This document shows, piece by piece, positions 1 through 63,858 of a stretch of DNA of 64,000 nt. The notes beneath the pieces are model-generated. The model did not search any database, was not told where the DNA came from, and saw nothing but the letters and a program-made list of their open reading frames with translations. Every line of letters starts with the position of its first letter. Positions within the stretch are counted from its first letter, which is position 1. Where the stretch lies: assembly GCA_035531375.1 (NCBI GenBank), contig DATKSZ010000014.1, forward strand, positions 23,031-87,030. The letters run 5' to 3'. A program made the position numbers and the translations under genes. This DNA is from Terriglobales bacterium. Lineage in GTDB: Bacteria; Acidobacteriota; Terriglobia; Terriglobales; SCQP01.

Positions 1-447
1 TCCGTAGAAGGCCCGCCGGTGGCTGTAGTCGGCCAGCAGGTGGGTGGGCCCGGCGGGTTGCCAGAGATAGGCCTGCCGCGCCGCCGGGGAGGGCGCGGCG
101 CCCCCGCGCCCGCGCCCGCTGGGCAGCGTCGCCGTGACCGCCGCCGGCGCCTCCGGCGCGCGCCCGCCACCCGGCTGCGCCTGCAAATGGTCGAGGCAGG
201 AGAGCGGATAGGCGGCCAGCGTCATCGCCTCCATCCGGTTGAGCGGCGGCGTCTGCGCCTCCGGCAGCGTTTGCAGAAAGGCCTGCACGCTGTGCGCCGC
301 CGGCGCGGCCAGCGGCGCTGGCGCCGCCGCCAACGGCGATGCCGCGCCCGCGGCCGCCGGCTGCGAACGGCAGCCGGCCAGCGCCAGCCCGGCCAGCGCG
401 GCGGCGAGCGCCAGGGAAGTCCGGCGGAGGCCAAGTCGCTGCTTCAT
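1..447 (-). CDS. Lipoprotein, DUF2891-like (5' part only; continues past the left edge of the window)
   Basis: Own translation of the minus strand from ATG at 447: MKQRLGLRRTSLALAAALAGLALAGCRSQ... This shows a signal peptide plus an LAGC lipobox. It continues ...AAYPLSCLDHLQ...LLADYSHRRAFYG and stays open to position 1. There is an ATGA start/stop overlap with the upstream MFS gene. It is absent from the ORF track because no stop lies inside the window. The family name is from memory of DUF2891 N-terminal motifs and is unverified. Confidence 0.45.
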   Translation of the reverse strand, partial: MKQRLGLRRTSLALAAALAGLALAGCRSQPAAAGAASPLAAAPAPLAAPAAHSVQAFLQTLPEAQTPPLNRMEAMTLAAYPLSCLDHLQAQPGGGRAPEAPAAVTATLPSGRGRGGAAPSPAARQAYLWQPAGPTHLLADYSHRRAFYG

Positions 448-4700: not shown

Positions 4701-6122
4701 CCCCGAATGCAGCGAAAAGAACTGGTGCAGGTCGTAGCGGATATCCTCCAGCGAGGTGTGCTGCTTGCCCACCCGCCAGACATTGGGCAGGTGGTCGGCG
4801 GCCAGGTCGAGCGCGGCGGCGGCGCCGCGCTCGTCGCCGCGCACCAGCAGCGCCGCGTGCGCGCCGAAGGCGCGGTCCACCACGCGCAGCTCGCCCTCGC
4901 CCGGAGCCAGCGCGGGCGCGGCCTGGGCGGCGGCGGTGTCTTCGGCCTGCAGTTTCTTCTCCACCGCGCGCGCCAGCGGGCTGTCGCCCGCCACCACCGG
5001 CTGCTCGCTGATCCGGTCCAGGTGGGCGCTGGCAGCGGGCGAGGCCAGCGGCAGCGTCAGGGCGGTGGTCTCCAGCCCCATGCGCGCGGCCAGGTTGGCC
5101 ATCGCCACCCCGGCCGCCCCCGCCGGCACATACAGGTGCGAGGTCAGCGAGGCCGGCACCGGCACCCGCCCGCCCGCGCCGAAGAGGCCGTGGTTGGTGT
5201 ACAGCGTGGCCAAGTCGAGGCCAGCGGGCCCGGCCGCCGCCCCGCCGCCGGGCGCGCCGCGCCCGCCCGCCGCCCCGCTGCCCCCGGGCGCGGCTGCCCC
5301 GCCCGCACGGCCCGCTGCCCGGGCCGCCGGCGCGGGCGGCGCCGGAAAGGTCTGCGGGTGGAACGGCTTGGGGTTGGTCGCGGAGATCGCCGCCCCGCCC
5401 AGTACGAACAATTCATGCACGGCGGCGAGGTGCCCGCCGGCGAACGCCCGTCGCAGCTCGGCCGCCGTCACCGCTCCGCTCGCGCTGAGGTAGGCCTTGA
5501 CGATGCCGGGCTGGCCCGCTTGATAGTCCAGCCCCACCAAGTCGGCGTGGGCGGCGGGCGCGGCGGCATTGACGGCGGCGGCGATGGCGGCCAACTCGTC
5601 CCCGCCCCCCCCCACCTTCCACTGGTAAGGGGCGCGGGCGCTGAAGGCATCGGCCGCGGCGGTCAGTCCGGCCGCGTCGCCCAGCACCAGCAGGTTGTCG
5701 TTGCTGCCCGGCGCCAACTCCACCACCCGCCCCTCGCCTCGCGCCAGGCGGAACCCCCAGGTGCGGGCCGCCCCCGCCTCGGCCGCCGGCACCGCCCCGG
5801 CGCCCACATAGATCGCCGGACCCGCCGCCCCCGCCGGCGCCGCCACCACCAGCGGCGGCGTCAGCCCCAGCGTCCCGTAGGCCAGCCGCGCCGCCAAGTT
5901 GGCCGCCGCCGCGTTCTCGGCCGCGCTGGGCTGCGCCGGCACCACGATGTGGCCGCGGATGGTGTCCGCCAGCCCGTCGTGGTTGGTGTCCTGCAGCATC
6001 CAGCCGGTGGCGAACGCCCGGCTGAAAGCGTCCCCCGCCCCCGTCTTGGCGCGCCCCCGCGGCGCCTGCGCTCCTACCCCCACGATGGCGAACAACACGG
6101 CAATCAACCGGATGCGGCGCAT
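1725..6122 (-). CDS. Large secreted protein (1465 aa) with a C-terminal M14 zinc-carboxypeptidase-like domain
   Basis: Track ORF 1725..6677 trimmed to ATG 6122, which gives the signal peptide MRRIRLIAVLFAIVGVGAQA. The C-terminal region has M14-type motifs: YSARQHANEVSS (HxxE, nt 2658-2669), HPIDNPDG and NPHGYPSHEW. The N-terminal ~1000 aa have no motif I recognise. A Gly/Ala/Pro low-complexity linker lies at aa 259-301 (nt 5220-5348). Confidence 0.8.
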   Translation of the reverse strand: MRRIRLIAVLFAIVGVGAQAPRGRAKTGAGDAFSRAFATGWMLQDTNHDGLADTIRGHIVVPAQPSAAENAAAANLAARLAYGTLGLTPPLVVAAPAGAAGPAIYVGAGAVPAAEAGAARTWGFRLARGEGRVVELAPGSNDNLLVLGDAAGLTAAADAFSARAPYQWKVGGGGDELAAIAAAVNAAAPAAHADLVGLDYQAGQPGIVKAYLSASGAVTAAELRRAFAGGHLAAVHELFVLGGAAISATNPKPFHPQTFPAPPAPAARAAGRAGGAAAPGGSGAAGGRGAPGGGAAAGPAGLDLATLYTNHGLFGAGGRVPVPASLTSHLYVPAGAAGVAMANLAARMGLETTALTLPLASPAASAHLDRISEQPVVAGDSPLARAVEKKLQAEDTAAAQAAPALAPGEGELRVVDRAFGAHAALLVRGDERGAAAALDLAADHLPNVWRVGKQHTSLEDIRYDLHQFFSLHSGVGQAAAGLFFLHRWLGQIAAQAGPVSHVHAELYADLVDPKMAGFVRTQIQDELHVPATVEAASLRAGTQCCASNPDLHYSNPEFPFHQGKPVFTEDIHIPWEGTTLLNDVRGAAPKLERGQPATLIARVSEGPQERQRLAAQLRDILTQAGADPGQTRVEVLDAYKQGYSWLEDEIEPELAGRPVARLEIEAAKDVDATGLRDMYSPARWMQELYPVDEVLAKQLKIPLADIHLREINTAPAVETAEQIALADPPNDPPSPTYEVRAYDAGGRLLLARHFTVAAVMQPYSGVIRSYEDVQVETGWVRLAQGGRVVLDQRIPTDIERFWDHYQTVTLPRVYRFIMAQAHGNLRPEYVPPFDTLKMDFHLSEPNYNIGVDKERISSIEALQEDVFYATETFIDTLGDLKNGRPENYVGRIIPVMHPSADGQDGEVHIEFYGKAAPNPLVRLSWTDAQGHAHSKLRNLPVLAGAFQPRLIGARVRAGAAGVEDLLWLLPADAQRYDMAAWEKLAGRQQLERSMFTVEQAEGELRALEAMHAAGLYPDELAYPGLGRMAIELQLPRPLGVPFRTPERRVLASWRVAPPLHPRPQIATVAPIPLNPQGRPFVQWREPIGPNQSAAILARLATYPGVNVYSMGRSYLGQVIWVADLMLPSPSKLISWAKQTTLKAAIVYSARQHANEVSSTSHVERLAELLVSDPAVRAYLKQVNVVLHPIDNPDGAKLSVMEAKIMPDNLLHLGYHGALAADVSSGQADVDPVYPESRTRRLLLQQWNPDAFLNPHGYPSHEWVQPFSEYSAWVQSRDGANNGRTWWIPRGWFTSLGYQRDTTTDTHSEAVTYALRDRIVDAERQVPGLLPLEERMNARYQRWGQAFQPDNMQQPLVEGIRIYMPLKGATGPGRGGMAGPGANAAVTWDQGYTEAPDETAHGDYMKLVASAGLAYDEVHLKYLAQGKLRITRSERETAQGVTWSVVRARPILPSSEPPVPKPPDGK

Positions 6123-6205: not shown

Positions 6206-9157
6206 TCAGAAAGTGAAGTGTACCGCCAATTCCGCCTGCTGCAGTGGCCCCGCCCCGGTCGCCTGGCCCCAACTGCTGGAACGGAGGTTGGTGTTGATGC
6301 CGCTGTAGTTGTAGGTGCCGGCCAGATTGAACACCTGGGCGATCACATCCAGCCGGCGGGTCTCGCCCAGATTGAAGGTGCGCGCGGCGCGCAAATCCAC
6401 CGTGTTCACCCGGCCGTTGGTGAGTATCGCGGCGTCCACCGGCGCCAGCCCCAGGCTGGCGCGGTAGGCGTTTACCGCGGTGTAATCCAGCCCCCGCTGC
6501 CCTTGGTCGCGCGTCGTCCCTGCCACATATTGCAGGCTGCCGTCGGCGTTGCGCGTAGTGGAGTACACGCTGAACGGCTCCGACGAGCGGAAGTCGAAGA
6601 TCGAGCCCAGCGTGATCCCCCACGGCGCCTGGTAGGAGCCGCTCGCCACCAGCGCGTTGCGCCGGTCTATGTTGCACGGCCCCCAGTCCTGGCCATAGTC
6701 GGCGTAGTTGGTCACCAGGCTCTGCGCCCCGTCGTCGGTGCAGCTCGACAGCGTGTAGGAGATCAGGAACTCGTAGCGGCTGCTGAAGCGCCTGTCCGCC
6801 CGGATGTAGAGCGCCTTGTACTTCGACTTCGACATGGGGGTGTGCTGCAGGATGCGGGCAAATTGCGGATAGGGCCGCACCCCGGCGCTATTGGGGTAGT
6901 TCAGGTCCACCACGCGGAAGTCGCGCAGGCTGAGCTCGTATACCCCGTCCACGTGGATGGAGAAGTTGGGCGAGATCTGGCGCGAGTAGCCGGCGTTGTA
7001 CTGCTCGGAATAGGGGTTCTGGAAGTTGGGCGCCAGCACCGTCACCGAGGGCAGCACCGTGGCCGCCGTCTGCCCGGCGGCGAAGGCGCTGGGATAGGAG
7101 GGGCAGGTGGCCTGTCCTGGCTTGGAGCAGGTCAGGCTGACCACGCTCTGCGCCAGATTGCGGTCCTCGGCGAAGTTCTGCAGCGTCTGGATGTTGCCGT
7201 AGTAGATGCCATAGCCCGCCCGCACCACGTTGCGCTGGTCGCCCCGGACGTTCCACGACAAGCCGATGCGCGGCGAGAAGTTGTGCGCGGCGCCGCGCTG
7301 GCTGGGATCGCCCAGGAAGGGGATGGGCTGGGGATAGGCGGCCGGGTTGATGTGTTCGTTGAAGCTGCCATACTCGCGGTCGTAGCGCAGTCCCATGCTG
7401 ACCGTGAGGTTGCGGATGCCGTTCCAGTCGTCGGTCACGAAATAGCTGGTCTGCGCCGTGGGCACCGAGGTCAGCACCGGCGGCACCGTCTGGGTGAACG
7501 CGGTCGGCCCGTAGGCCGGCGTCGCCCCCGCCCCCGGGTAGTAGAGGTTGGCCGCCGAAAAGCTGGCGTTGTTGGGCGCGTTCACCGGGCTCAGCGGCGA
7601 GCTGGGATCGGTGTTGAAGCTGAACGCCCCCTTGATCCCCACCGGCGCGTCGTCGGCGAAGGGAATGTGGGCCACGTCGAAGCCGTATTTGAGGTTGTGG
7701 GCGCCGTGGAAAATGCTGGCGGTGTCGGCGAACTCCCAGTGGCTCTCGATGCCGTCGTCGCCGTAGTCGCTGCCGAAGCTGAAGTCGGGAAACGACAGCG
7801 TGGTGGCGTAGGGGGTGAAGCGGCTGGCCGGATACTGCCCAATCTGCGTCCAGATGCCCTGCCCGCAGGCCTGCGGACATTGGCTCGGCCCCAGCAGGTA
7901 GGCGGCGCGGGCGTACTGGAAGCGGAAGTCGTTGACCAGGGTCGAGCTCAGCGCCCAGGTGTGTCCCACCACCAGCGAGCGCCGCGGCAGCAGGCCGTCG
8001 TAGCCGGCGTTGGGCGAGTTGGCCCCGCCGCAGCCCTGGCAGGTAAGCAGGTTCCACTCCTGCCCCCAGCGCACGAACAGCGTCTGGTCGCTGTTGATCT
8101 GGTAGTCGCCCCGCAGGGTGAGCAGGTCGTCGTGGCCGGGCTGCTTGTACACCCCCTCCCAGGCCCCGAAGATGGCCGGGTCGTTGGTGAACACCGTGTA
8201 GGAGCCTTGCGTCAGGGTGGACTCCCAGGCCCCGAAAAAGTGCAGCTTGTTCTTCAGGATGGGGCCGCCCAGGTCGCCCCCCAGTTGGTTGCGGTCGAGC
8301 GGCGCCTTGCCGGTGTGCTGCGCCTGCTCGGCGGCGATCTGGAAGCTGTTGTCCCGGTTGAGCGACTGGTTGCGCCAGTACTCGAAGAAATCGCCGTGCA
8401 GGTGGTTGGTCCCGCTCTTGGTGACCACGCTCACCGCCCCCCCCGCCGACATGCCTCCCTCGTCCGCCTTGAACTGCGAGCTGTACACCTTGAACTCCGC
8501 TACCGCCCCCTCGGGGAAGTTCTCGCGCGGCTCGCCCATCTCCGCCCAGTTGTTGTTCACCCCGTCCACGGTGAAGCTGTTGGAGTAGTAGTGGCTGCCG
8601 CCGCCGAGCTGCACGTTGTTGTAGAACGAGCGCGAGGCGTCCTGGGTCGTGCCCGGCATCAGCAGGCTGAGGTTGAGGTACTGGCGGTTGGCGATGGGGA
8701 GCTGGTCAATTTGGGTGGAGGTGATCACCCCGGCGACGTTGCTCTTGCTGGTGTCGATCGGCGGAGCCGTGCCGCTCACCTCCACCGTGGCCTGCTGGGC
8801 GGCAAGCTTGAGGGCGTCGTGCCGCTCCAGCACCGTGCCGATCTGCAGCACCAGCCCGGTGACCTCGGTCGTGGCGAAGCCGGTCTTGGCGTAGCGCAGC
8901 GTGTAGGTGCCCAGCGGCAGGTCGGGCAGCAGGTAGCGCCCGTCGGCGCCGGCCTGCACCGTGCGCGCCGCCCCGGTCTGGGTGTTGGTGGCCGTGACCG
9001 TGACCCCGGGCAGGGCCGCCCCGCTGGCGTCGGTGACCCCGCCCTGAATCTGGGCGGTGTCCTGGGCGGAGAGGGCCGAGGCGGCGGGCAGCAGGGCCAG
9101 CAGGGCGAAGCCGGCGGCCAGCGCCAGGCGGGAGGAGCAAAAGCGATGCAGCGTCAT
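6206..9157 (-). CDS. TonB-dependent receptor with N-terminal carboxypeptidase-regulatory-like domain
   Basis: 983-aa ORF with an ATG start. It has a signal peptide followed by QGGVTDASGAALPGVTVTATNTQTGAARTVQAGADGRYLLPDLPLGTYTL, a CarboxypepD_reg-type fold. A long beta-rich barrel follows and ends ...LAVHFTF with a terminal aromatic residue. Confidence 0.9.
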   Translation of the reverse strand: MTLHRFCSSRLALAAGFALLALLPAASALSAQDTAQIQGGVTDASGAALPGVTVTATNTQTGAARTVQAGADGRYLLPDLPLGTYTLRYAKTGFATTEVTGLVLQIGTVLERHDALKLAAQQATVEVSGTAPPIDTSKSNVAGVITSTQIDQLPIANRQYLNLSLLMPGTTQDASRSFYNNVQLGGGSHYYSNSFTVDGVNNNWAEMGEPRENFPEGAVAEFKVYSSQFKADEGGMSAGGAVSVVTKSGTNHLHGDFFEYWRNQSLNRDNSFQIAAEQAQHTGKAPLDRNQLGGDLGGPILKNKLHFFGAWESTLTQGSYTVFTNDPAIFGAWEGVYKQPGHDDLLTLRGDYQINSDQTLFVRWGQEWNLLTCQGCGGANSPNAGYDGLLPRRSLVVGHTWALSSTLVNDFRFQYARAAYLLGPSQCPQACGQGIWTQIGQYPASRFTPYATTLSFPDFSFGSDYGDDGIESHWEFADTASIFHGAHNLKYGFDVAHIPFADDAPVGIKGAFSFNTDPSSPLSPVNAPNNASFSAANLYYPGAGATPAYGPTAFTQTVPPVLTSVPTAQTSYFVTDDWNGIRNLTVSMGLRYDREYGSFNEHINPAAYPQPIPFLGDPSQRGAAHNFSPRIGLSWNVRGDQRNVVRAGYGIYYGNIQTLQNFAEDRNLAQSVVSLTCSKPGQATCPSYPSAFAAGQTAATVLPSVTVLAPNFQNPYSEQYNAGYSRQISPNFSIHVDGVYELSLRDFRVVDLNYPNSAGVRPYPQFARILQHTPMSKSKYKALYIRADRRFSSRYEFLISYTLSSCTDDGAQSLVTNYADYGQDWGPCNIDRRNALVASGSYQAPWGITLGSIFDFRSSEPFSVYSTTRNADGSLQYVAGTTRDQGQRGLDYTAVNAYRASLGLAPVDAAILTNGRVNTVDLRAARTFNLGETRRLDVIAQVFNLAGTYNYSGINTNLRSSSWGQATGAGPLQQAELAVHFTF

Positions 9158-53387: not shown

Positions 53388-53897
53388 CTACCGCCGCCCG
53401 GCGGCGCCGTAATGCTTCGCCAAGTAGCCGCGCACGTTGGTTGGCGCGGGCCCCAGCGCGCCTGCGGCGCGCGTCCCGCTTGTGCTCGCGCCGACTTGGG
53501 GGCCCGTGGCCCCAAGTCGGCGCTGCGCTTCGCTGGGGCCGCGCCGCATTTGTTTCCCGGGGGCGCAGACGCGCCACTGGCGCGTCTGCCCCTGCGGAAT
53601 TTCGCAACCTTTCGCGCCGATTTTGCCGGCAGGCAAAGCGGCGCGACCCCCGCGAGCGGCCAGTTCCCGCGGCGAGGCTTCCAGCCCGTTGTCCTGCATC
53701 TCGTCGAGCGTGTCCCGCCACTGGGCCAGCGTTTGCCGGGTTGCGACCACCCGCGCCAAGCCATGGCAATCCGAGCACAGCCGCACCGTGGCGGCCTTGC
53801 CCGCGCCCGCCGGCGATGGCCGGATCCGGCGGCAGCGCCGGCGCGACCGCCCGCCCAAGGCGGCGGCGAAGCCGCCGCGGGCGCGGACGCGGCGCAT
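53388..53897 (-). CDS. Small CxxCH-motif ORF (cytochrome c-like) carrying a ~220-bp palindromic repeat in frame; possibly a pseudogene
   Basis: The 169-aa ORF starts 4 nt after the upstream methyltransferase stop. ...AATVRLCSDCHGLARVVATRQTLAQWRDTLDEMQDNGLEASPRELAA is followed by a ~72-aa repeat-encoded insert, then NVRGYLAKHYGAAGRR. The two flanks together resemble a single small haem-binding domain (CxxCH...W...M...YLAK..G). No convincing signal peptide is visible, which argues for decay or a wrong start. Confidence 0.3.
   Translation of the reverse strand: MRRVRARGGFAAALGGRSRRRCRRIRPSPAGAGKAATVRLCSDCHGLARVVATRQTLAQWRDTLDEMQDNGLEASPRELAARGGRAALPAGKIGAKGCEIPQGQTRQWRVCAPGKQMRRGPSEAQRRLGATGPQVGASTSGTRAAGALGPAPTNVRGYLAKHYGAAGRR
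53439..53661. repeat. Multi-hairpin GC-rich repeat element, copy A (223 bp)
   Basis: It aligns by eye along its whole length with 63581-63858, in the same orientation. It contains at least four stem-loops: 53456-53472, 53488-53523, 53559-53592 and 53613-53645. Confidence 0.75.
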
Positions 53898-53900
53898 GGC

Positions 53901-56038
<2,138 letters not shown>

Positions 56039-56088
56039 CTAAAGCGTACACTCCATGGTATTTCCTTCCCCTCCCGCGCACCCCCCCC

Positions 56089-58830
56089 ATGCCCGCCAAC
56101 CGCGATGTCGGACCCTTCGAGGTGATCGAGCCCTTGGGCGCCGGCGGCATGGGCGAGGTCTTCAAGGCCCGCGACCGCCGCCTCAACCGCCTGGTGGCGT
56201 TGAAGTTTTTGCCCGAGGCCGCCACCCCCGCCGCCCGCGAACGCTTCCAGCGCGAGGCCACCGCCATCGCCGCCCTCAACCATCCCCACATCTGCACCCT
56301 CTTCGAGATCGGCGACGACCACGGTCGGCCCTACCTGGTGCTCGAGCTGCTCGAGGGCGAGACCTTGCGCGCCCGGCTCGCCCGCGGCCCGCTGTCGCCG
56401 GAGCAGTTGCTCGACTGGGCGGTGCAGATCGCCGACGCCCTCGACGCCGCCCACCGCCGCGGCATCCTCCACCGCGACCTCAAGCCCGACAACATCTGGG
56501 TCTCCCCCGGCGGTCATCTCAAGGTGCTCGACTTCGGCCTCGCCCGCCTCGAAGCCCCCGATCCCTCCGACGCCGCCGGCGCCACCCTCACCGACGGCCG
56601 CACCCTCACCTCGCCCGGCATGACCCTCGGCACCATCCCCTACATGTCGCCCGAGCAGGCCCGCGGCGAAACCCTCGACCCCCGCTCCGACCTGTTCAGC
56701 TTCGGCTCGGTCTTCTACGAGATGGCCTGCGGACGCCGCGCCTTCCCCGCCAGCGGTGCCGCCGACTCCATCGCCGCCATCCTCAAGGAGCAGCCCCCCC
56801 GCCTCGGACAACTCCGCCCCGAATTGCCCCTCAAATTCGACGAGGTCGCCAGCCGCTGCCTGGAGAAAGACCCCGATCTGCGCTACCAGTCTGCCGCCGA
56901 CTTGCGCAGCGACTTGAAGCGCCTCAAGCGCGAGAGCGGCACGCTCACCCCAGCCCCCGCCTCCGACCCCAGCGCGCCCGCCACGGTCGCCCTGCCCGCG
57001 CCCCCGCCCCGCCCCAGCGCCGCCCCCCTCTCCTCCGACGCCCAAGTGCTGGGCGGCCTGGTCCGCCGCCACTGGCGCTGGCCCGCGCTGGCCGCCCTGG
57101 CGCTCGTCGCCGCCGCCCTGGCCTGGTGGCGCTTCGCCCCCCGGCCCCCGGCCGCGCCCATCAACCTGACCTTCCGCCAGCTCACCTTCACCGGCCACGT
57201 GCTCGACGCCGCCATCTCCCCCGACGGCAAGTTCCTCGCCCACGTGGACCTCAACCCCGGCGGCACCTCCCTCCACCTGCTCTCCATCGCCAGCGGCAGT
57301 GACGTGCAAATCGTCCCTCCCGGCGACGGTTGTTGCGCCGCCCCCACCTTCTCCCCCGACGGCAGCGCCGTCTACTTCCAGGCCAACGATCGCCTGGAGG
57401 CGGTCCCGGTGCTCGGCGGCGCGGTGCGCCCCATCGCCAGCCACGTCTGCAGCGGCGCCGGCTTCTCCCCCGACGGCAGCCAGATCGCCTACCTCACCGC
57501 GCCCACCGCAACCAGCCAACTCATCCTCGCCCGCCCCGATGGTGCGCAGCCGCGCGTGCTGCATGAAACTGCGCCCGGTGTTGGCTACCTGTCCACTTGC
57601 TGGGGCTCTCCCGGAGCGCTTGTCCATCCCCCCGCCTGGTCGCCCGACGGCCGCCTTCTCGCCGTGGCCAAATTCGGCAATGGCGTCGGCACCCACGTCG
57701 AGACCGTCAACACCGCCGACGGCCACGTCGCCGATGATCTCGCCCCCGACCTCAACTTTGGCGGGGCCGACCTGAACTGGCTGCCCGATGGCAGCGGCCT
57801 GGTCCTCACCGCCGCCATGCCCGCCTCGGCGGTCCCCCAAGCCTGGCTGCTGCCCTATCCCAGCGGTCCGGCCAAGGCGCTCACCAACGACCTGCAGGGC
57901 TACTCCAGCGCCAGCCTCTCCGCCCAGGGCGATCTCGTCCTCCTCCACAACGCTCCCCAATACTCCATCTGGGCACAAGCCTCCCCCCAGGCCGAACTGC
58001 GCCAGTTGCCCGGCGGCGGCTCCAACCAGGATGGTTTCAACGGCCTTGCCTGGACGCCCCAAGACGCTCTGGTCACCACCCGCACCTTCGGCGGCAAGGT
58101 GCAACTCTGGTCGGACAACGCCGACGGCACCGCCGCCCATCCCCTGCTGCCCGACGCGCCCTCGAGTCTCAGCGGTCCGGTGGTGGCGCCGAACGGACAG
58201 ATCCTCTTTTCCGCCGGCACCAAAGCCAATGATGTCTGGCGCGTCAATGCCGACGGCACCGGCCTCATCCGCTTCCAGCCCGCCGGCCCGGCCAGCCAAA
58301 ACTCACTGCCCACCCTGGTGGACGGCGGCCAAGCCGTGGTCTACCTGCACCTCCTGGGCAACCGTCAAACCCTTTGGCAGGCGCCACTCGGCGGCGGCCC
58401 CGCCCACCAGATTTGGTCCGGCAACGTCTTTGTGGACGGCAACCCCGCCTCCCCCGACGGCAACCGCCTCTTCGCCGAAACCATGGGTCCCGGCCAGTCC
58501 CACGTCGCCGCCATCATCCAACTCGACGGTGGTCAAGCCCAAGTCCATACCATCGCCCTCGACCACGCCACCATGCAGGGGCCCTACAATTGGACCCCCG
58601 ACGGCCGCGCCATCACCTACATCGTCAACCACGGCACCACCGACAACCTCTGGGCCTTTCCCCTCGACGGCCGCAAGCCCTACCCCCTCACCCACTTCAC
58701 CGACCTGCGCATCGCCGCCTACGCCTTCTCCCACGACGGCCGCCTCGCCCTCAGCCGCGGCAGCCCCAACACCGACGCCGTCCTCGCCACCGGCCTCGCC
58801 CCGGCGAACTCCGCCAGCCATGCCCACTAA
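56089..58830 (+). CDS. Ser/Thr protein kinase with TM segment and C-terminal TolB-like beta-propeller repeats
   Basis: ATG 56089. The Hanks motifs are LGAGGMGEVFKA, VALKFL, HRDLKPDN, DFGLA and MSPEQ. After a Pro-rich linker and one TM (WPALAALALVAAALAWW), repeated SPDG-type propeller blades follow. Confidence 0.9.
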   Translation: MPANRDVGPFEVIEPLGAGGMGEVFKARDRRLNRLVALKFLPEAATPAARERFQREATAIAALNHPHICTLFEIGDDHGRPYLVLELLEGETLRARLARGPLSPEQLLDWAVQIADALDAAHRRGILHRDLKPDNIWVSPGGHLKVLDFGLARLEAPDPSDAAGATLTDGRTLTSPGMTLGTIPYMSPEQARGETLDPRSDLFSFGSVFYEMACGRRAFPASGAADSIAAILKEQPPRLGQLRPELPLKFDEVASRCLEKDPDLRYQSAADLRSDLKRLKRESGTLTPAPASDPSAPATVALPAPPPRPSAAPLSSDAQVLGGLVRRHWRWPALAALALVAAALAWWRFAPRPPAAPINLTFRQLTFTGHVLDAAISPDGKFLAHVDLNPGGTSLHLLSIASGSDVQIVPPGDGCCAAPTFSPDGSAVYFQANDRLEAVPVLGGAVRPIASHVCSGAGFSPDGSQIAYLTAPTATSQLILARPDGAQPRVLHETAPGVGYLSTCWGSPGALVHPPAWSPDGRLLAVAKFGNGVGTHVETVNTADGHVADDLAPDLNFGGADLNWLPDGSGLVLTAAMPASAVPQAWLLPYPSGPAKALTNDLQGYSSASLSAQGDLVLLHNAPQYSIWAQASPQAELRQLPGGGSNQDGFNGLAWTPQDALVTTRTFGGKVQLWSDNADGTAAHPLLPDAPSSLSGPVVAPNGQILFSAGTKANDVWRVNADGTGLIRFQPAGPASQNSLPTLVDGGQAVVYLHLLGNRQTLWQAPLGGGPAHQIWSGNVFVDGNPASPDGNRLFAETMGPGQSHVAAIIQLDGGQAQVHTIALDHATMQGPYNWTPDGRAITYIVNHGTTDNLWAFPLDGRKPYPLTHFTDLRIAAYAFSHDGRLALSRGSPNTDAVLATGLAPANSASHAH

Positions 58831-61576
58831 CCGCGACATCGGCCCCTTCGAGGTGCTGGAAAAGCTGGGCGCCGGCGGCATGGGCGTGGTCTTCCAGGCC
58901 CGCGACCGCCGCCTCAATCGCCTGGTGGCGCTCAAGCTCCTGCCCGAGGCCTCCAGCGACGCCGCCCGCGAGCGCTTTCAGCGCGAGGCCCTCGCCATCG
59001 CCGCCCTCAACCATCCCAACATCTGCACTTTGTACGAGGCCGGCGAGCACGCCGGCCAGCCCTACCTGGTGATGGAGCTGCTCGAGGGCGAAACCCTCCA
59101 CGACCGCCTCCGCCGCGGCCCCGTGCCCCTGCCCCAGCTCGTGCAATGGGGCGCGGAGATCGCCGACGCCCTGCAGGCCGCCCACGCCAAGGGCATCCTC
59201 CACCGCGACCTCAAGCCCGGCAACATCTTCATCACCCAGCGCGGCAGCGCCAAGGTGCTCGACTTCGGCCTGGCGCAGTTCGCCCTGGCCGGCGCCGCCG
59301 AGGCCGACGCCGCCACCCTCGCCGGCACCGCCCCCGGCGCCGCCGCCGGCAAGCAGCCGCTCACCACCCCCGGGGCCACCCTCGGCACCGCCGCCTACAT
59401 GTCGCCCGAGCAGGCCCGCGGCGAATTGCTCGACGCCCGCAGCGACCTCTTCAGCCTGGGCGTGGTGCTCTACGAGATGGCCGGCGGCCAGCCGCCCTTT
59501 CAAGGCCGCACCTCCGCCGATCTTTCCGCCGCCATCCTCATGCGCATCCCGCCGCCGCCCAGCTCGCTGCGCCCCGAGATCCCGCCCCGGCTCGACGACA
59601 TCATCGCCCAGTGCCTGGAGAAAGACCCCGATCTGCGCTTCCAGTCCGCCGCCGAGCTGCGCGTCGGCCTCCGCCGGCTGCTGGGAACCTCCTCCTCGGG
59701 TGCCCCCTCGTCCAGCCCCAACGTTCTCTCCACCCCCGGCCTGCCACCGCCCTCCACGCCCGCGCCCGCCTCCGCCACCGCGGTCGCCCCCGCGCCCCGC
59801 CCCCGCTGGGCCCTGCCCGCCGCCGCCTTCGTGGTGCTCGCGCTGGCCGCGCTGGCCTGGTGGCGTTGGCAGCCCCGCCCCGCCCCGCCGCCAGCCGCCG
59901 CGGCCAACCTCAGCTTCCGCCCCCTGACCTTCAGCGGGCAGGTGCAAGACGCCGCCATCTCTCCCGACGGCAAGTTCCTCGCCCACGTGGATGCCTCCCC
60001 GCAAGGCACCTCCCTCCATCTGCTCTCGGTCGCCAACGGTAGCGACGTCGAGATCATGCCCCCCGCCCCCGGCTGCTGCCAATCGCCTTCGTTCTCCCCC
60101 GACGGCAGCACCGTCTATTTTGTCGAGGACAAGACCCTGAAAGCCATTCCTGTGCTCGGCGGCGCGGTGCGCACCATCGCCAATGAAGTCTGCAGCGGCG
60201 CCGGCGTCTCCCCCGACGGCAAGCAGATCGCCTACCTGGCGGCCCGGCCCGCCGGCGACGAGCTGACCGTCGCGCTCGCCGATGGCTCCCAGGCCCACGT
60301 GCGCAGCGATCCCAGCCCCTCCGGCTACGACAGCCGCTGCTGGATCAACGGCCCCCTGTATCCCGACACCCCCGCCTGGTCCCCCGACGGCCGCTGGATC
60401 GCGGTCGAGCGCAGCGGCGCCGGCACCGACGTCACCGACCACGTCGTGCTGGTCGGCGCCGCCGACGGCCGCCTCCAGGAGCTGGGCCCCGACCTCCCCC
60501 GGTCCGCCTCCGACTTGGCCTGGCGGCCCGATGGCCGCGGCGTGCTGGTCACCGACTCCATCCCCAGCACCTCGCCCTCGCAGATTCGCGAGATCGCCTA
60601 CCCCGGCGGCCAACTCCTACAACTGACCCACGACCTCCAGGGCTTTGACCGCGTCACCATCGCCTCCCAGGCTGGCGGCGCCATAGCGCTGGTTCACAGC
60701 AACCCGCAGTACTCCGTCTGGCGCCAGGCCATCCCCGGCGGTGCCTTCGAGCCGTTGCCCGGCGGTGGCGCCGACCAAGATGGATTTTTCGGCTTGGCCT
60801 GGACACCCCAAGGCCAGCTCGTCAGCGTGCGCTTCCCCGCCGGTCAAAGCCAACTCTGGCTGGAGGGCGCCGGCCCGCCCCAACCCATCCCGGTCGGCAA
60901 CCTCCCCACCTTTTTCATGGACCCCAACGTCTCTCCCAGCGGGCAAATTGTTTTTCAGGGCCTCAACCCTGCCGGAACCTGGAACATCTGGCGCGTGGAC
61001 CTGCAAGGGACCGGCCTGGCCAATCTCACCCCCGGCCTCAACGCCATCAACCCGGTCCTGGTGGAGGGCGGCAAATCGGTGGCCTTTCTGAACATGTACG
61101 CCGCCGGCAACGCCTCCCATCAGCGCCTCTGGATCGTGCCGCTGGCGGGCGGAGCCCCCCGCAAGACCTCGCCGATCGAGCTCTATACCAATTTCGGGCT
61201 TCCCCTGCCCGACCCAGAACGCGTCTTGGCGCCCGCCATGGTGCCCAACAGCAGCGTCGGCGACGTGGTCGAGATTAGCCTCAACGGCGCCGCGCCCATC
61301 GTCGTGAAGCCGCGCGAGTCCCGCGGCAGCTTCGCCGCCCCCTACGCCACCACCCCCGACGGGCGCGCCCTCGCCGGGGTCATCACCGATGGCAATACCG
61401 GCAACATCTGGGCCGCTCCGCTCGACGGCGGCCCGCTCTACGCCATCACCCATTTCACCGACCTCACGATCGCCGCCTACGCCTTCTCCCGCGACGGCCG
61501 CCTGGCCGTCAGCCGCGGCTCCCAGAACAGCGACGCCGTGGTCGCCACCGGCCTCGCCCCCGCTGGGCATCGGTAA
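58820..61576 (+). CDS. Ser/Thr protein kinase with TM segment and C-terminal TolB-like beta-propeller repeats (paralog of the upstream gene)
   Basis: ATG 58820 overlaps the upstream gene by 11 nt. The architecture is the same and the termini are near-identical: [39 protein letters not shown] versus [39 protein letters not shown], and [23 protein letters not shown] versus FTDLRIAAYAFSHDGRLALSRGS. Confidence 0.9.
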
Positions 61577-63580: not shown

Positions 63581-63858
63581 GGTGGTGGGCGCGGGCCCCT
63601 GCGCGGCTGCGCCGCGCGTCCCGCTTGTGCTCACGCCGGCTTGGGGGCCCCGCGGCCCCAAGCCGGCGCTGCGCTGCTTCACTGCCCGGGGGGGCCGCGC
63701 CGATTCGCTTCCCGGGGGCGCAGACGCGCCCCGGGCGCGTCTGCCCCTGCGGAATTACGACCCCCCCAGAGCCCGAGGCGGGCTCTGGGGGCCCCGGTTC
63801 GCAGCCTTTCGCGCCGATTTTGCCAGCAGGCAAAGCGGCGCGACCCCCGCGATCGGCC
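63581..63858. repeat. Multi-hairpin GC-rich repeat element, copy B (278 bp, with one extra hairpin module)
   Basis: This is the same element as 53439-53661, lying intergenic 15 nt after the acs stop. An extra perfect 13-bp-stem hairpin lies at 63763-63791 (CCCCCAGAGCCCG-agg-CGGGCTCTGGGGG). Confidence 0.75.

Follow-up and report, generated by a model that had tools for sequence, protein, structure and literature searches.

What are the two look-alike, GC-rich chains of hairpins that lie about ten kilobases apart in this stretch of Terriglobales DNA (64,000 nucleotides, hereafter the window), and what keeps their stems paired where their sequences differ? By sequence reading, the two copies have the same orientation. 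Copy A (53437..53655, plus strand) is 219 nt or 73 codons long and runs from TTGGTTGGCGCGGG to ACCCCCGCGA; its junctions are exact from an empty-site orthologue (L121), and it matches the covariance model of the family at 109.8 bits. Copy B (63582..63852, plus strand) is 271 nt long, with a covariance-model match of 69 bits over 63582-63701, and compared with copy A it contains two additional segments of 10 nt and 42 nt, the longer of which is itself a hairpin. It starts 15 nt past the stop codon of an acetyl-CoA synthetase (acs) gene, identified by Pfam, and lies between convergent genes. The first-pass annotation had placed the copies at 53439-53661 and 63581-63858; both are real, and their limits are corrected to those given here by comparison of filled and empty sites. 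The nhmmer E-values for the two copies were 1e-69 and 3e-86, and their RNA folding z-scores against dinucleotide shuffles were -6.8 and -5.5. The resemblance of the two stretches is not due to chance. Neither nhmmer nor the covariance model detected a third copy in the window. The neighbouring genes encode an SDR protein, tRNA-Glu, a methyltransferase, ThiC, Ser/Thr kinases and acetyl-CoA synthetase, in agreement with the initial observation that no transposase is nearby.

Each copy is built as a series of hairpins (all coordinates on the plus strand). In copy A, a long-range helix, P1, is predicted by RNAalifold from 37 copies to pair the 5’ strand GGCGCGGGCCCCAGC (53443..53457) with the 3’ strand GCTGGGGCCGCGCC (53532..53545), and the same alignment shows covariation from A-U to U-A at columns 19/99. 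The two main P1 helices together have 12 pairs, and 8 of these show double changes across 125 distinct copies. This helix around hairpins 1 and 2 (53443-53457/53532-53545), like the location of copy A in coding sequence, had not been seen by the earlier reader.

The local hairpins were recognized by sequence reading, and the stem differences first described between the two copies are present as claimed. Hairpin 1 (53456..53472), which begins 20 nt inside the left end, is GCGCGCC-TGC-GGCGCGC in copy A and GCGCGGC-TGC-GCCGCGC in copy B, and in the 125-copy set one of its pairs is C-G in 64 copies and G-C in 48. Hairpin 2 (GCGCCGACTTGGGGGCC...GGCCCCAAGTCGGCGC, 53488..53523) has a hypervariable loop and carries the swap of A53494/T53517 for G63639/C63663; in the same set, double changes are seen at 9 of the 14 pairs of this hairpin, and at one of them A-U (52 copies) alternates with G-C (49) and G-U (7). 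Hairpin 3 (GGGGGC-GCAGACGCGCC-ACT-GGCGCGTCTGC-CCC, 53559..53593) is an optional module whose stem, CAGACGCGCC/GGCGCGTCTG, is the same in both copies around different loops (ACT and CCG), and which occurs as a compensated variant, GCAGAAGCGCC/GGCGCTTCTGC, in 4 copies. The commonest class of the family, 201 nt long, has the mini-hairpin GGGCG-GGC-CGCCC in its place. The 3’ subterminal hairpin (CGCGCCG-AT-TTTGCC-GGCA-GGCAAA-G-CGGCGCG, 53613..53645) also has the same stem in A and B, with loops GGCA and AGCA; it ends 10 nt from the right end, and the 10-nt tail ACCCCCGCGA fills that distance. Its apparent invariance is partly an ascertainment bias, because related loci were retrieved with the 3’ hairpin motif. 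Finally, an optional 42-nt module, CCCCCCAGAGCCCG-AGG-CGGGCTCTGGGGG (63756..63797), is found in copy B only of the two window copies; 49 other copies have it too, and its stem occurs there in several compensated versions.

The element is not a two-copy oddity, and the proposal of a REP-, BIME- or MITE-type repeat was right in its dispersed-family part. We fetched related loci with the 3’ hairpin motif, so copy number, 3’-hairpin conservation and taxonomic spread are biased, and we identified modules by regular expressions and the covariance model, single-sequence nhmmer being too insensitive for modules. With this approach, ~0.85-0.94 Mb of related contigs yielded at least 140 distinct complete copies, and 845 kb gave at least 138 covariance-model matches. 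There are at least 153 paired copies, at least 145 of them with distinct flanks, ranging in length from 84 to 342 nt, and the density is about one copy per 5-7 kb in contigs that were retrieved via the repeat itself. Among the matches listed in a genome scan there was one true contig, L001, labelled as a Streptosporangiaceae MAG, which is probably mis-binned because a JGI metagenome contig (L036) has the same arrangement. Another match, L002, is likely due to chance (54% GC, no nhmmer match). A full-length copy gave no BLAST match in plasmid and phage collections, and a scan of viral contigs found none.

All complete forms share the fixed ends 5’-WTGGTKGGCGCGGG ... GCGGCGCGACCCCCGCGA-3’, between which up to seven hairpin modules are gained or lost. 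The consensus of the left end is WTGGTK-GGCGCGGGCCCC..., and the right end is the 3’ hairpin followed by ACCCCCGCGA. As an alignment of five copies and the full set of at least 145 show, modules between the ends are lost or swapped, and the 89-nt left unit is amplified into tandem arrays. The tetranucleotide GTAG is confined to the loops of two optional modules in the at least 145 copies. Decayed copies with truncations, or with internal deletions between short direct repeats, also occur, and two copies at different loci differ from each other by only 2 nt.

The first-pass annotation took the paired stem changes as evidence of selection on the fold and proposed a covariation check on a larger alignment. 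Double changes are found at 23 of the 40 pairs in our alignment of 125 distinct copies, a level reached by 0 of 500 shuffles, and controls in which the pairing was slid gave at most 17 cells against 172 observed. Overall, 96.7% of the cells are paired, and singleton variants occur in stems at one-third of their frequency in unpaired columns (p = 6e-5). Thus paired maintenance is borne out, whereas calling it the signature of selection on the fold was an overstatement: the pattern fits either selection on the copies that act as sources for propagation or correction of one arm against the other at the DNA level, neither of which implies a function at individual loci.

We conclude, with a probability of roughly 0.6, that this is a non-coding, non-autonomous, high-copy mobile DNA repeat family of Terriglobales (Acidobacteriota), whose hairpins would be needed for propagation and which probably moves as single-stranded DNA with the help of an enzyme acting in trans. 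The family is new, but of a familiar selfish kind of bacterial DNA, and it is not a new RNA gene. We hypothesize that the hairpins are retained since propagation requires them: only source copies with pairing stems would be copied, so that subfamilies would come to differ by compensatory substitutions even as individual insertions decay. The element would probably move as hairpin-folded single-stranded DNA exposed at the replication fork, and a putative hairpin-recognizing nuclease or transposase, perhaps of the HUH type as in IS200/IS605, RAYT or IS91-like systems, may act on it in trans.

The paired substitutions could instead have arisen without selection, by template switching or gene conversion between the arms of quasi-palindromes, which would convert a mismatch into a fresh perfect pair; we regard this as unlikely. 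Most double changes do fall in local hairpins, hypervariable loops contrast with clean stems, and single mismatches of the G·U and A·C types occur in near-equal, strand-symmetric numbers (45 vs 48), all of which would fit such arm correction. However, the long-range helix also covaries, being A-U in 56 copies and U-A in 26 at one pair and showing further double changes, and this is harder to obtain by local template switching because other hairpins lie between its strands, which are ~80 nt from each other. Furthermore, the three differences that define subfamilies are compensated pairs, all three.

We also searched for a mobilizing enzyme. In ~1 Mb examined we found no autonomous copy, that is, no gene bracketed by both ends, and no left and right end paired 0.6-4 kb apart. 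A Pfam search of 67 ORFs beside orphan ends revealed no mobilizing enzyme, the matches being housekeeping genes and one IS66 transposase. With Y1-transposase queries, phmmer identified one RAYT-like Y1_Tnp gene (L001:2128-2706, Pfam E = 7e-10). We rejected this gene as the partner: it is flanked by a separate 47-nt GTAG-type REP family and shows no REPtron arrangement with the element described here. A bolder version of the mobile-element reading would make this family an unrecognized class of replication-coupled, hairpin-guided single-stranded DNA element, which would have its own enzyme (not RAYT, IS200/IS605 or IS91), use the multi-hairpin scaffold and long-range helix as a recognition platform and routinely remodel proteins in frame in Acidobacteriota. 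We consider this an outside chance.

The orientation of the copies bears on whether DNA or RNA is the maintained form. Adjacent copies on contigs have the same orientation in 83 cases and different orientations in 12, and 72 of 78 copies agree in orientation with the other copies of their locus. This orientation does not follow gene direction (1029 co-directional vs 1031 anti-directional coding windows) and is tied to a gene-independent excess of G over C, in 38 of 51 metagenome loci (p = 7e-5). Both window copies are on the C-rich strand, opposite to the majority trend of the metagenome loci. Together, the mismatch symmetry and the orientation pattern support maintenance at the level of DNA rather than RNA.

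That the copies are structured RNAs selected locus by locus, for example as 3’-UTR stabilizers, terminators, or small-RNA or guide-RNA genes, is therefore doubtful in our view, even with strong predicted folds, covariation and stems that are poorer in private variants than loops. The placement of the copies has some appeal for such a role: the left neighbouring gene is co-directional more than twice as often as not (62 vs 26), and where that gene is co-directional, 48 of 61 copies begin within 90 nt after its stop codon. However, ~30% of copies run antisense to the gene upstream, and the locus-wide orientation ignores gene direction. RNA-level selection would also be expected to leave more G·U than A·C mismatches, and there is no such excess. 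Truncated, internally deleted and tandem forms are frequent, copies occur within coding sequences in both orientations, and presence or absence is polymorphic between near-identical strains. Rfam provides no named family. The check suggested at the outset, which included the Acido-1 and Acido-Lenti-1 motifs, was made with Rfam 15, which should include both; its sole gathering-level match in the window was the tRNA-Glu, and permissive scans of copies A and B and one full-length copy gave sub-threshold noise of 19 bits or less.

The copies are clean insertions, and the host gene of copy A holds one of them. Copy A is an in-frame insertion of 73 codons into a small CxxCH (c-type-cytochrome-like) gene on the minus strand (53388..53897), supported by its translation and coding periodicity, and the ORF stays open. 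It encodes 169 aa with copy A, compared to 117 aa in the uninterrupted orthologue P0003, which reads ...SPRELAAVRGYLAKYYG across the insertion point. Its Pfam cytochrome matches are weak and sub-threshold. The filled window site aligns with the empty L121 site without duplication.

In general, the copies lie mostly just past gene ends: besides the 48 of 61 already mentioned, 24 of 44 on the convergent side are within 90 nt of a stop codon. Some are found inside genes, which tolerate in-frame copies such as copy A. Seven of the 8 stringently intragenic copies are in frame, which is not significant given that 55% of family lengths are multiples of 3; out-of-frame copies in broken genes also occur. 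Intragenic inserts include one of 234 nt (L050) and one of 243 nt (L110). The interrupted ORF of L050/L100, the second in-frame example, is unannotated and without a Pfam domain. In addition, 33 neighbouring ORFs run into an element. We also considered whether the element is itself protein-coding and rejected this, since module indels do not consistently keep to multiples of 3, genes hold it in both orientations, and its apparent homologues are only ORFs through other copies.

Junction-anchored local alignment of filled and empty sites gave seven comparisons, L121 and six others, one of which has 99% identical flanks (L050 vs L100). All show precise insertion with a 0-bp target-site duplication. 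The element starts with WTGG and is followed on the right by NNgG, with G at +4 in 94% of copies, so that the 4 bases 3’ of both junctions are alike with one or two positions constrained. Over 143 copies there is no mutual information between the columns of the two flanks, which show neither duplication nor pairing. The insertion preference is thus 5’ of NNGG, a weak flank rule with one strongly conserved base.

Precise insertion without duplication and strand-biased orientation would also be compatible with an RNA intermediate inserted by target-primed reverse transcription, with the bottom strand as the RNA sense. This would explain why truncated copies tend to retain the same end: ~40 copies have the left end only and ~10 the right end only, despite the use of the right end for retrieval. 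Nevertheless, we find this very improbable, as we found no match to ribozymes, group II introns or retron RNAs and no reverse transcriptase among the ORFs near orphan ends, the size (200-340 nt) and ends are unlike those of group II introns, and the element is without a tail or primer-like feature. Least credible of all is a classical MITE derived from a DDE-transposase insertion sequence, with terminal inverted repeats and target-site duplications, for which the small, non-coding, high-copy and highly base-paired nature of the element and the presence of IS21 and IS66 transposases in the same metagenome population could be cited, against the missing duplication in all seven comparisons, consensus ends that are not inverted copies of each other (TTGGTGGGCGCGGGCCCC matches the reverse complement of TCGCGGGGGTCGCGCCGC at 11 of 18 positions, at ~80% GC) and a strong strand bias that DDE MITEs usually do not have. 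Of the four labels offered at first (REP, BIME, MITE and structured ncRNA), only that of a REP/BIME-like mosaic repeat fits, and those of a strict MITE and an ncRNA gene do not.

Widespread in the genomes of this soil Terriglobales lineage, the family has practical consequences. Gene callers already yield false or chimeric proteins by reading through the elements, and the family breaks or extends real genes, as in the window, where the CxxCH gene has gained 73 residues. Its more than 120 distinct copies, with their clear subfamilies and compensated stems, and its empty sites also make it a natural experiment on how a multi-hairpin fold is retained in a mobile element. If a dedicated enzyme were found, duplication-free insertion combined with the weak NNGG target rule would be mechanistically interesting. 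To our knowledge, elements of the BOX, BIME or RPE type have been little described in high-GC Acidobacteriota, to which this family extends that type of repeat.

How does the family relate to known systems? Elements of the IS200/IS605 family have no terminal inverted repeats, make no target-site duplication, carry subterminal hairpins and use 4-5-nt targets. Like their palindrome-associated derivatives, the present element is without inverted repeats or duplication and has subterminal hairpins at both ends. The strand asymmetry to which its orientation is tied may be replication-like. In contrast, no cognate tnpA or tnpB with the present ends was found in ~1 Mb, a single flank base is strongly conserved instead of a 4-5-nt target, and the multi-hairpin mosaic and tandem unit arrays are atypical of that family.

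REP and BIME sequences are high-copy palindromic units that lie mostly outside genes and downstream of them, with some intragenic copies, form mosaic clusters and insert without duplication; for REPs and REPINs, mobilization of a single-stranded hairpin by an HUH tyrosine transposase (RAYT) has been proposed (Di Nocera et al. 2013, PMC3733652). The present family is similarly mosaic, predominantly extragenic and downstream of genes, with some intragenic copies and no duplication. However, REP units are 20-40 nt long with a terminal GTAG or CGTC, whereas the present element strings different hairpins together in a set order over 200-340 nt and bears no such tag, and the 47-nt GTAG-type REP and RAYT-like gene of the same population belong to a separate family. 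Rickettsia palindromic elements (RPE) interrupt protein-coding genes in frame and leave them open, and they end in CGTC (PMC3733652). Copy A, which adds 73 codons in frame, and the other in-frame intragenic copies resemble them in this respect; the host and base composition are unrelated, there is no CGTC end, most copies are intergenic and out-of-frame copies are found in broken genes.

Finally, the BOX elements of Streptococcus pneumoniae and S. suis are composite repeats of the form boxA-boxB(n)-boxC that are regarded as parasitic and non-autonomous (Croucher et al. 2011, PMC3049150). Their ends are reported to be inverted repeats resembling ISSpn2 (PMC3049150), unlike the ends described here, and their amplified module is central, whereas ours is the left terminal unit. 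The strong uniformity of orientation along the chromosome is a further difference, there is no apparent sequence relationship, and the ~80% GC of the present elements sets them apart in composition, making homology unlikely. The likeness lies in the design: both families combine fixed 5’ and 3’ terminal modules with an internal set that varies in kind or number, tandem module expansion and tight stem-loops, and in both the two strands are open, such that gene callers annotate ORFs through the elements, which overlap the extreme 3’ ends of genes and occasionally disrupt them (PMC3049150).

We find both of the look-alike stretches of stem-loops described by the first-pass annotation, in the same order and orientation, at window positions 53437-53655 (+) (copy A, 219 nt) and 63582-63852 (+) (copy B, 271 nt). 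The C:G to G:C swap it had reported in hairpin 1 and the paired swap in hairpin 2 (A53494/T53517 in copy A versus G63639/C63663 in copy B) are present in the sequence, and hairpin 3 and the 3' hairpin are indeed the same in both copies, with unlike loops. Copy B is longer by two segments of 10 nt and 42 nt, the latter a hairpin in its own right. The two copies are the sole matches in the window to a two-copy nhmmer profile (E = 1e-69 and 3e-86), both fold far more strongly than dinucleotide shuffles (z = -6.8 and -5.5), and comparison with Rfam gave no matching family, whether at the gathering threshold or with E relaxed to 10. Convergent genes flank copy B, which begins 15 nt past the acetyl-CoA synthetase stop codon. 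Copy A interrupts a small CxxCH gene of the minus strand without breaking its reading frame; the assignment of this gene as a cytochrome is weak. The window also holds thiC (54554-55948 (-), radical SAM ThiC, E = 5e-187), upstream of which (55949-56150) no TPP riboswitch was detected even at E up to 1, and two neighbouring paralogous Ser/Thr kinase genes with PD40/Tricorn-like repeats (56026-61576 (+)), visible as a direct-repeat ladder with a spacing of ~2743-2758 nt and 70-83% identity. An 86-nt tRNA-Asn called by ARAGORN at 314-399 (-) falls below threshold with the Rfam tRNA model and is probably a spurious call in a GC-rich stretch.

Copies A and B belong to a high-copy, modular, non-coding repeat, and the dispersed family suspected from them proved to be large. 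A search pattern from the 3' hairpin found at least 3 further copies on a genome-collection contig (L001) and at least 117 matching stretches in metagenome contigs, almost all of them belonging to three sister JGI samples. The 0.94 Mb of fetched sequence, mainly from three related samples in which the same regions recur from different strains, holds at least 153 complete copies (a left-end motif paired with a right-end motif), and at least 145 of these differ in their flanks. A covariance model built on the left 110 nt gave at least 138 hits in 845 kb, its only hits in the window being copies A and B. Between a constant left end (5'-WTGGTK GGCGCGGGCCCCnGCGCGsC...) and a constant right end (...CGCGCCGATTTTGCCnnnnGGCAAAGCGGCGCG ACCCCCGCGA-3'), hairpin modules are present or absent by copy. 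The most frequent length class is 201 nt and copy A is of a 219-nt class; full-length copies carry seven hairpins and measure up to 336-342 nt, and the smallest, 47-84 nt, are the fused ends alone. Short direct repeats such as GCGCCGATT bound the internal deletions. The left unit (89-98 nt, hairpins 1 and 2) can be repeated head-to-tail, with up to 8 units followed by one right end in L057 and further arrays in L027, L033 and L026. At ~5400-5769 (-) of another locus, L017, the left tip of a copy is intact and its right half is present, but ~50 nt of unrelated AT-richer sequence stands in place of the internal modules.

The exact ends were given by an empty site. The one true homologue of the copy-A ORF, a public predicted protein of 117 aa (P0003), reads ...SPRELAAVRGYLAKYYG at the point of 73 extra residues in the window protein, and its contig, L121, is an empty site for copy A. 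The filled site (GGCCGC|TCGCGG...CCAACCAA|CGTGCG) and the empty one (GGCCGC|CGTGCG) have unambiguous junctions with zero duplication, and thus define copy A as TTGGTTGG...CCCCCGCGA. Joining the flanks of each copy and searching the loci yielded six additional empty sites, their junctions equally clean; the target-site duplication that the first-pass annotation proposed to look for is absent from all seven filled/empty sites. The presence/absence polymorphism is recent: the flanks of L050 and L100 are 99% identical, so insertion or excision there was recent. One pair of copies abuts as ...CGCGA|TTGGTG.... In flank logos the right flank begins NNgG (G at +4 in 135 of 143 copies), resembling WTGG, the first four bases of the element, and the left flank has C at -2 in 51% of copies and nothing else; mutual information between the two flanks was not found. 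Insertion is precise, and the left and right ends are not inverted copies of one another.

With respect to genes, a co-directional left gene (n = 61 copies) stops 0-90 nt before the element in 48 and runs into it in 13; for a convergent right gene (n = 44 copies) the corresponding counts are 24 and 20. Seven of the eight stringently intragenic copies (same frame on both flanks and an open ORF across the joined flanks) have a length that is a multiple of 3, an in-frame tendency that is no more than suggestive, given that 55% of copies overall have such lengths. Out-of-frame copies are present in a gene split over three frames. The GT9 heptosyltransferase-like gene of L039 (2113-3610 (-)), split over three reading frames, is probably a pseudogene; in L039 and L110, two populations, this gene carries an element of 220 nt versus a different one of 243 nt ~75 nt away. 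Public gene calls (P0002, P0004-P0010) pass through elements on the bottom strand with the common peptide RGGRAALPAGKIGAKGCEIPQG..., and such read-through creates spurious or chimeric 'hypothetical proteins'.

The stems are maintained by paired changes across the family, as had been proposed from the two copies. Within the 201-nt class 99.0% of cells are paired and two-sided changes occur in four pairs (39 cells), which 0 of 500 shuffles match and slid controls approach with at most 2. Three of these four pairs separate two subfamilies, so that six substitutions are three exact pairs. Among 125 distinct left domains, whose alignment was fitted to a covariance model and is biased towards structure, double changes fall in 23 of 40 pairs (172 cells); none of 500 shuffles equalled the 23 pairs, and slid controls did not exceed 14 pairs or 17 cells. 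Optional modules add compensated stem variants, private variants per column are threefold rarer in stems than elsewhere (p = 6e-5), and, in keeping with the earlier claim that loops vary, the hairpin 2 loop is hypervariable. Pure arm-to-arm correction, by which one arm of a hairpin is matched to the other, is a rival explanation of such changes; one subfamily-separating pair belongs to a long-range helix, predicted by RNAalifold from 37 copies of the 201-nt class, in which GGCGCGGGCCCCAGC pairs with GCTGGGGCCGCGCC ~80 nt downstream, around hairpins 1 and 2. We hypothesize that the hairpins are required for propagation, which would place selection on source copies.

The fold could also serve an RNA-level function, but the mismatches and the orientation of copies point to the DNA level. 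Single mismatches are strand-symmetric, however, with 45 of the G·U type, tolerable in top-strand RNA, versus 48 of the A·C type, tolerable on the bottom strand only (p = 0.84). Neighbouring copies share orientation in 83 cases and oppose in 12, and 72 of 78 copies point the same way as the others at their locus. At loci of uniform orientation, 1029 coding windows are co-directional versus 1031 anti-directional (gene strand and frame were called from GC3 periodicity, not curated annotation), and the G-rich strand coincides with the top strand of the element at 38 of 51 loci (p = 7e-5, coding-strand effect removed). Orientation is thus linked to chromosome strand, not genes, and follows a chromosome-scale property rather than transcription, most simply the direction of replication. 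The window is exceptional: both copies lie on its + strand, although this is the strongly C-rich one. From 8 kb onward the GC skew of this strand is uniformly negative (-0.13 to -0.22) and far exceeds the coding-strand effect of related loci (-0.037).

We suggest that the element is handled as folded single-stranded DNA at the replication fork, and that a candidate hairpin-recognising enzyme of HUH type would process it in trans. About 40 copies have only the canonical left end, followed by variable internal stop points, versus ~10 with only the right end, despite retrieval of the loci by the 3' hairpin motif, which biases both the right-end count and the invariance of that hairpin. This excess would fit a rolling-circle-like process beginning at the left end; on the other strand it would fit reverse transcription from a 3' end, as in a retro-element. 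No gene bracketed by both element ends was found in the sequence examined, and ORFs adjoining orphan ends are housekeeping genes and one IS66 transposase. Y1-transposase queries gave a single match, confirmed by Pfam (Y1_Tnp, E = 7e-10), a RAYT-like Y1 (HUH tyrosine) transposase gene at L001:2128-2706 (+), also present in L036, which adjoins three multi-hairpin copies in these two contigs. At its 3' end this gene overlaps a GTAG-type REP, and the ORF extends into one of the multi-hairpin elements; just upstream lies the end of an IS21-type istB gene. The repeat flanking the transposase gene is a different family, a GTAG-tagged REP of 47 nt that forms tandem arrays itself. The REP literature (PMC3733652) leads one to expect just this pairing of a RAYT gene with a GTAG-type REP. 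The hairpin unit of this second, unrelated family (~47 nt, GTAG tag, GTAGGGCTGGGTTCGCACAGCCAAGATTGGCTGTGCCACCGTGGCCAG) occurs singly or in arrays with periods of 47 nt and 78 nt (L001:2662-2691 and 2940-2969; L093:9221-9600; L092:2582-2900 and 6764-6925), and one multi-hairpin element in L001 is bracketed by two of its copies.

Of the rival explanations (RNA-level function, classical MITE, arm-to-arm correction and retro-element), the classical MITE alone is excluded outright. The REP, BIME or MITE-type label of the first-pass annotation stands in part: clean insertion and a proposed hairpin mechanism are shared with REP/BIME and with IS200/IS605 derivatives, but the defining tests of both GTAG/CGTC REPs and DDE MITEs failed. 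Because it fails these tests and has no Rfam match, we file the repeat as a new family of an already known type. In-frame gene insertion is shared with RPEs. The closest analogue by build and genomic behaviour is pneumococcal BOX, which likewise combines terminal modules with a variable set of internal ones, has ORFs on either strand and overlaps the 3' ends of genes (PMC3049150).
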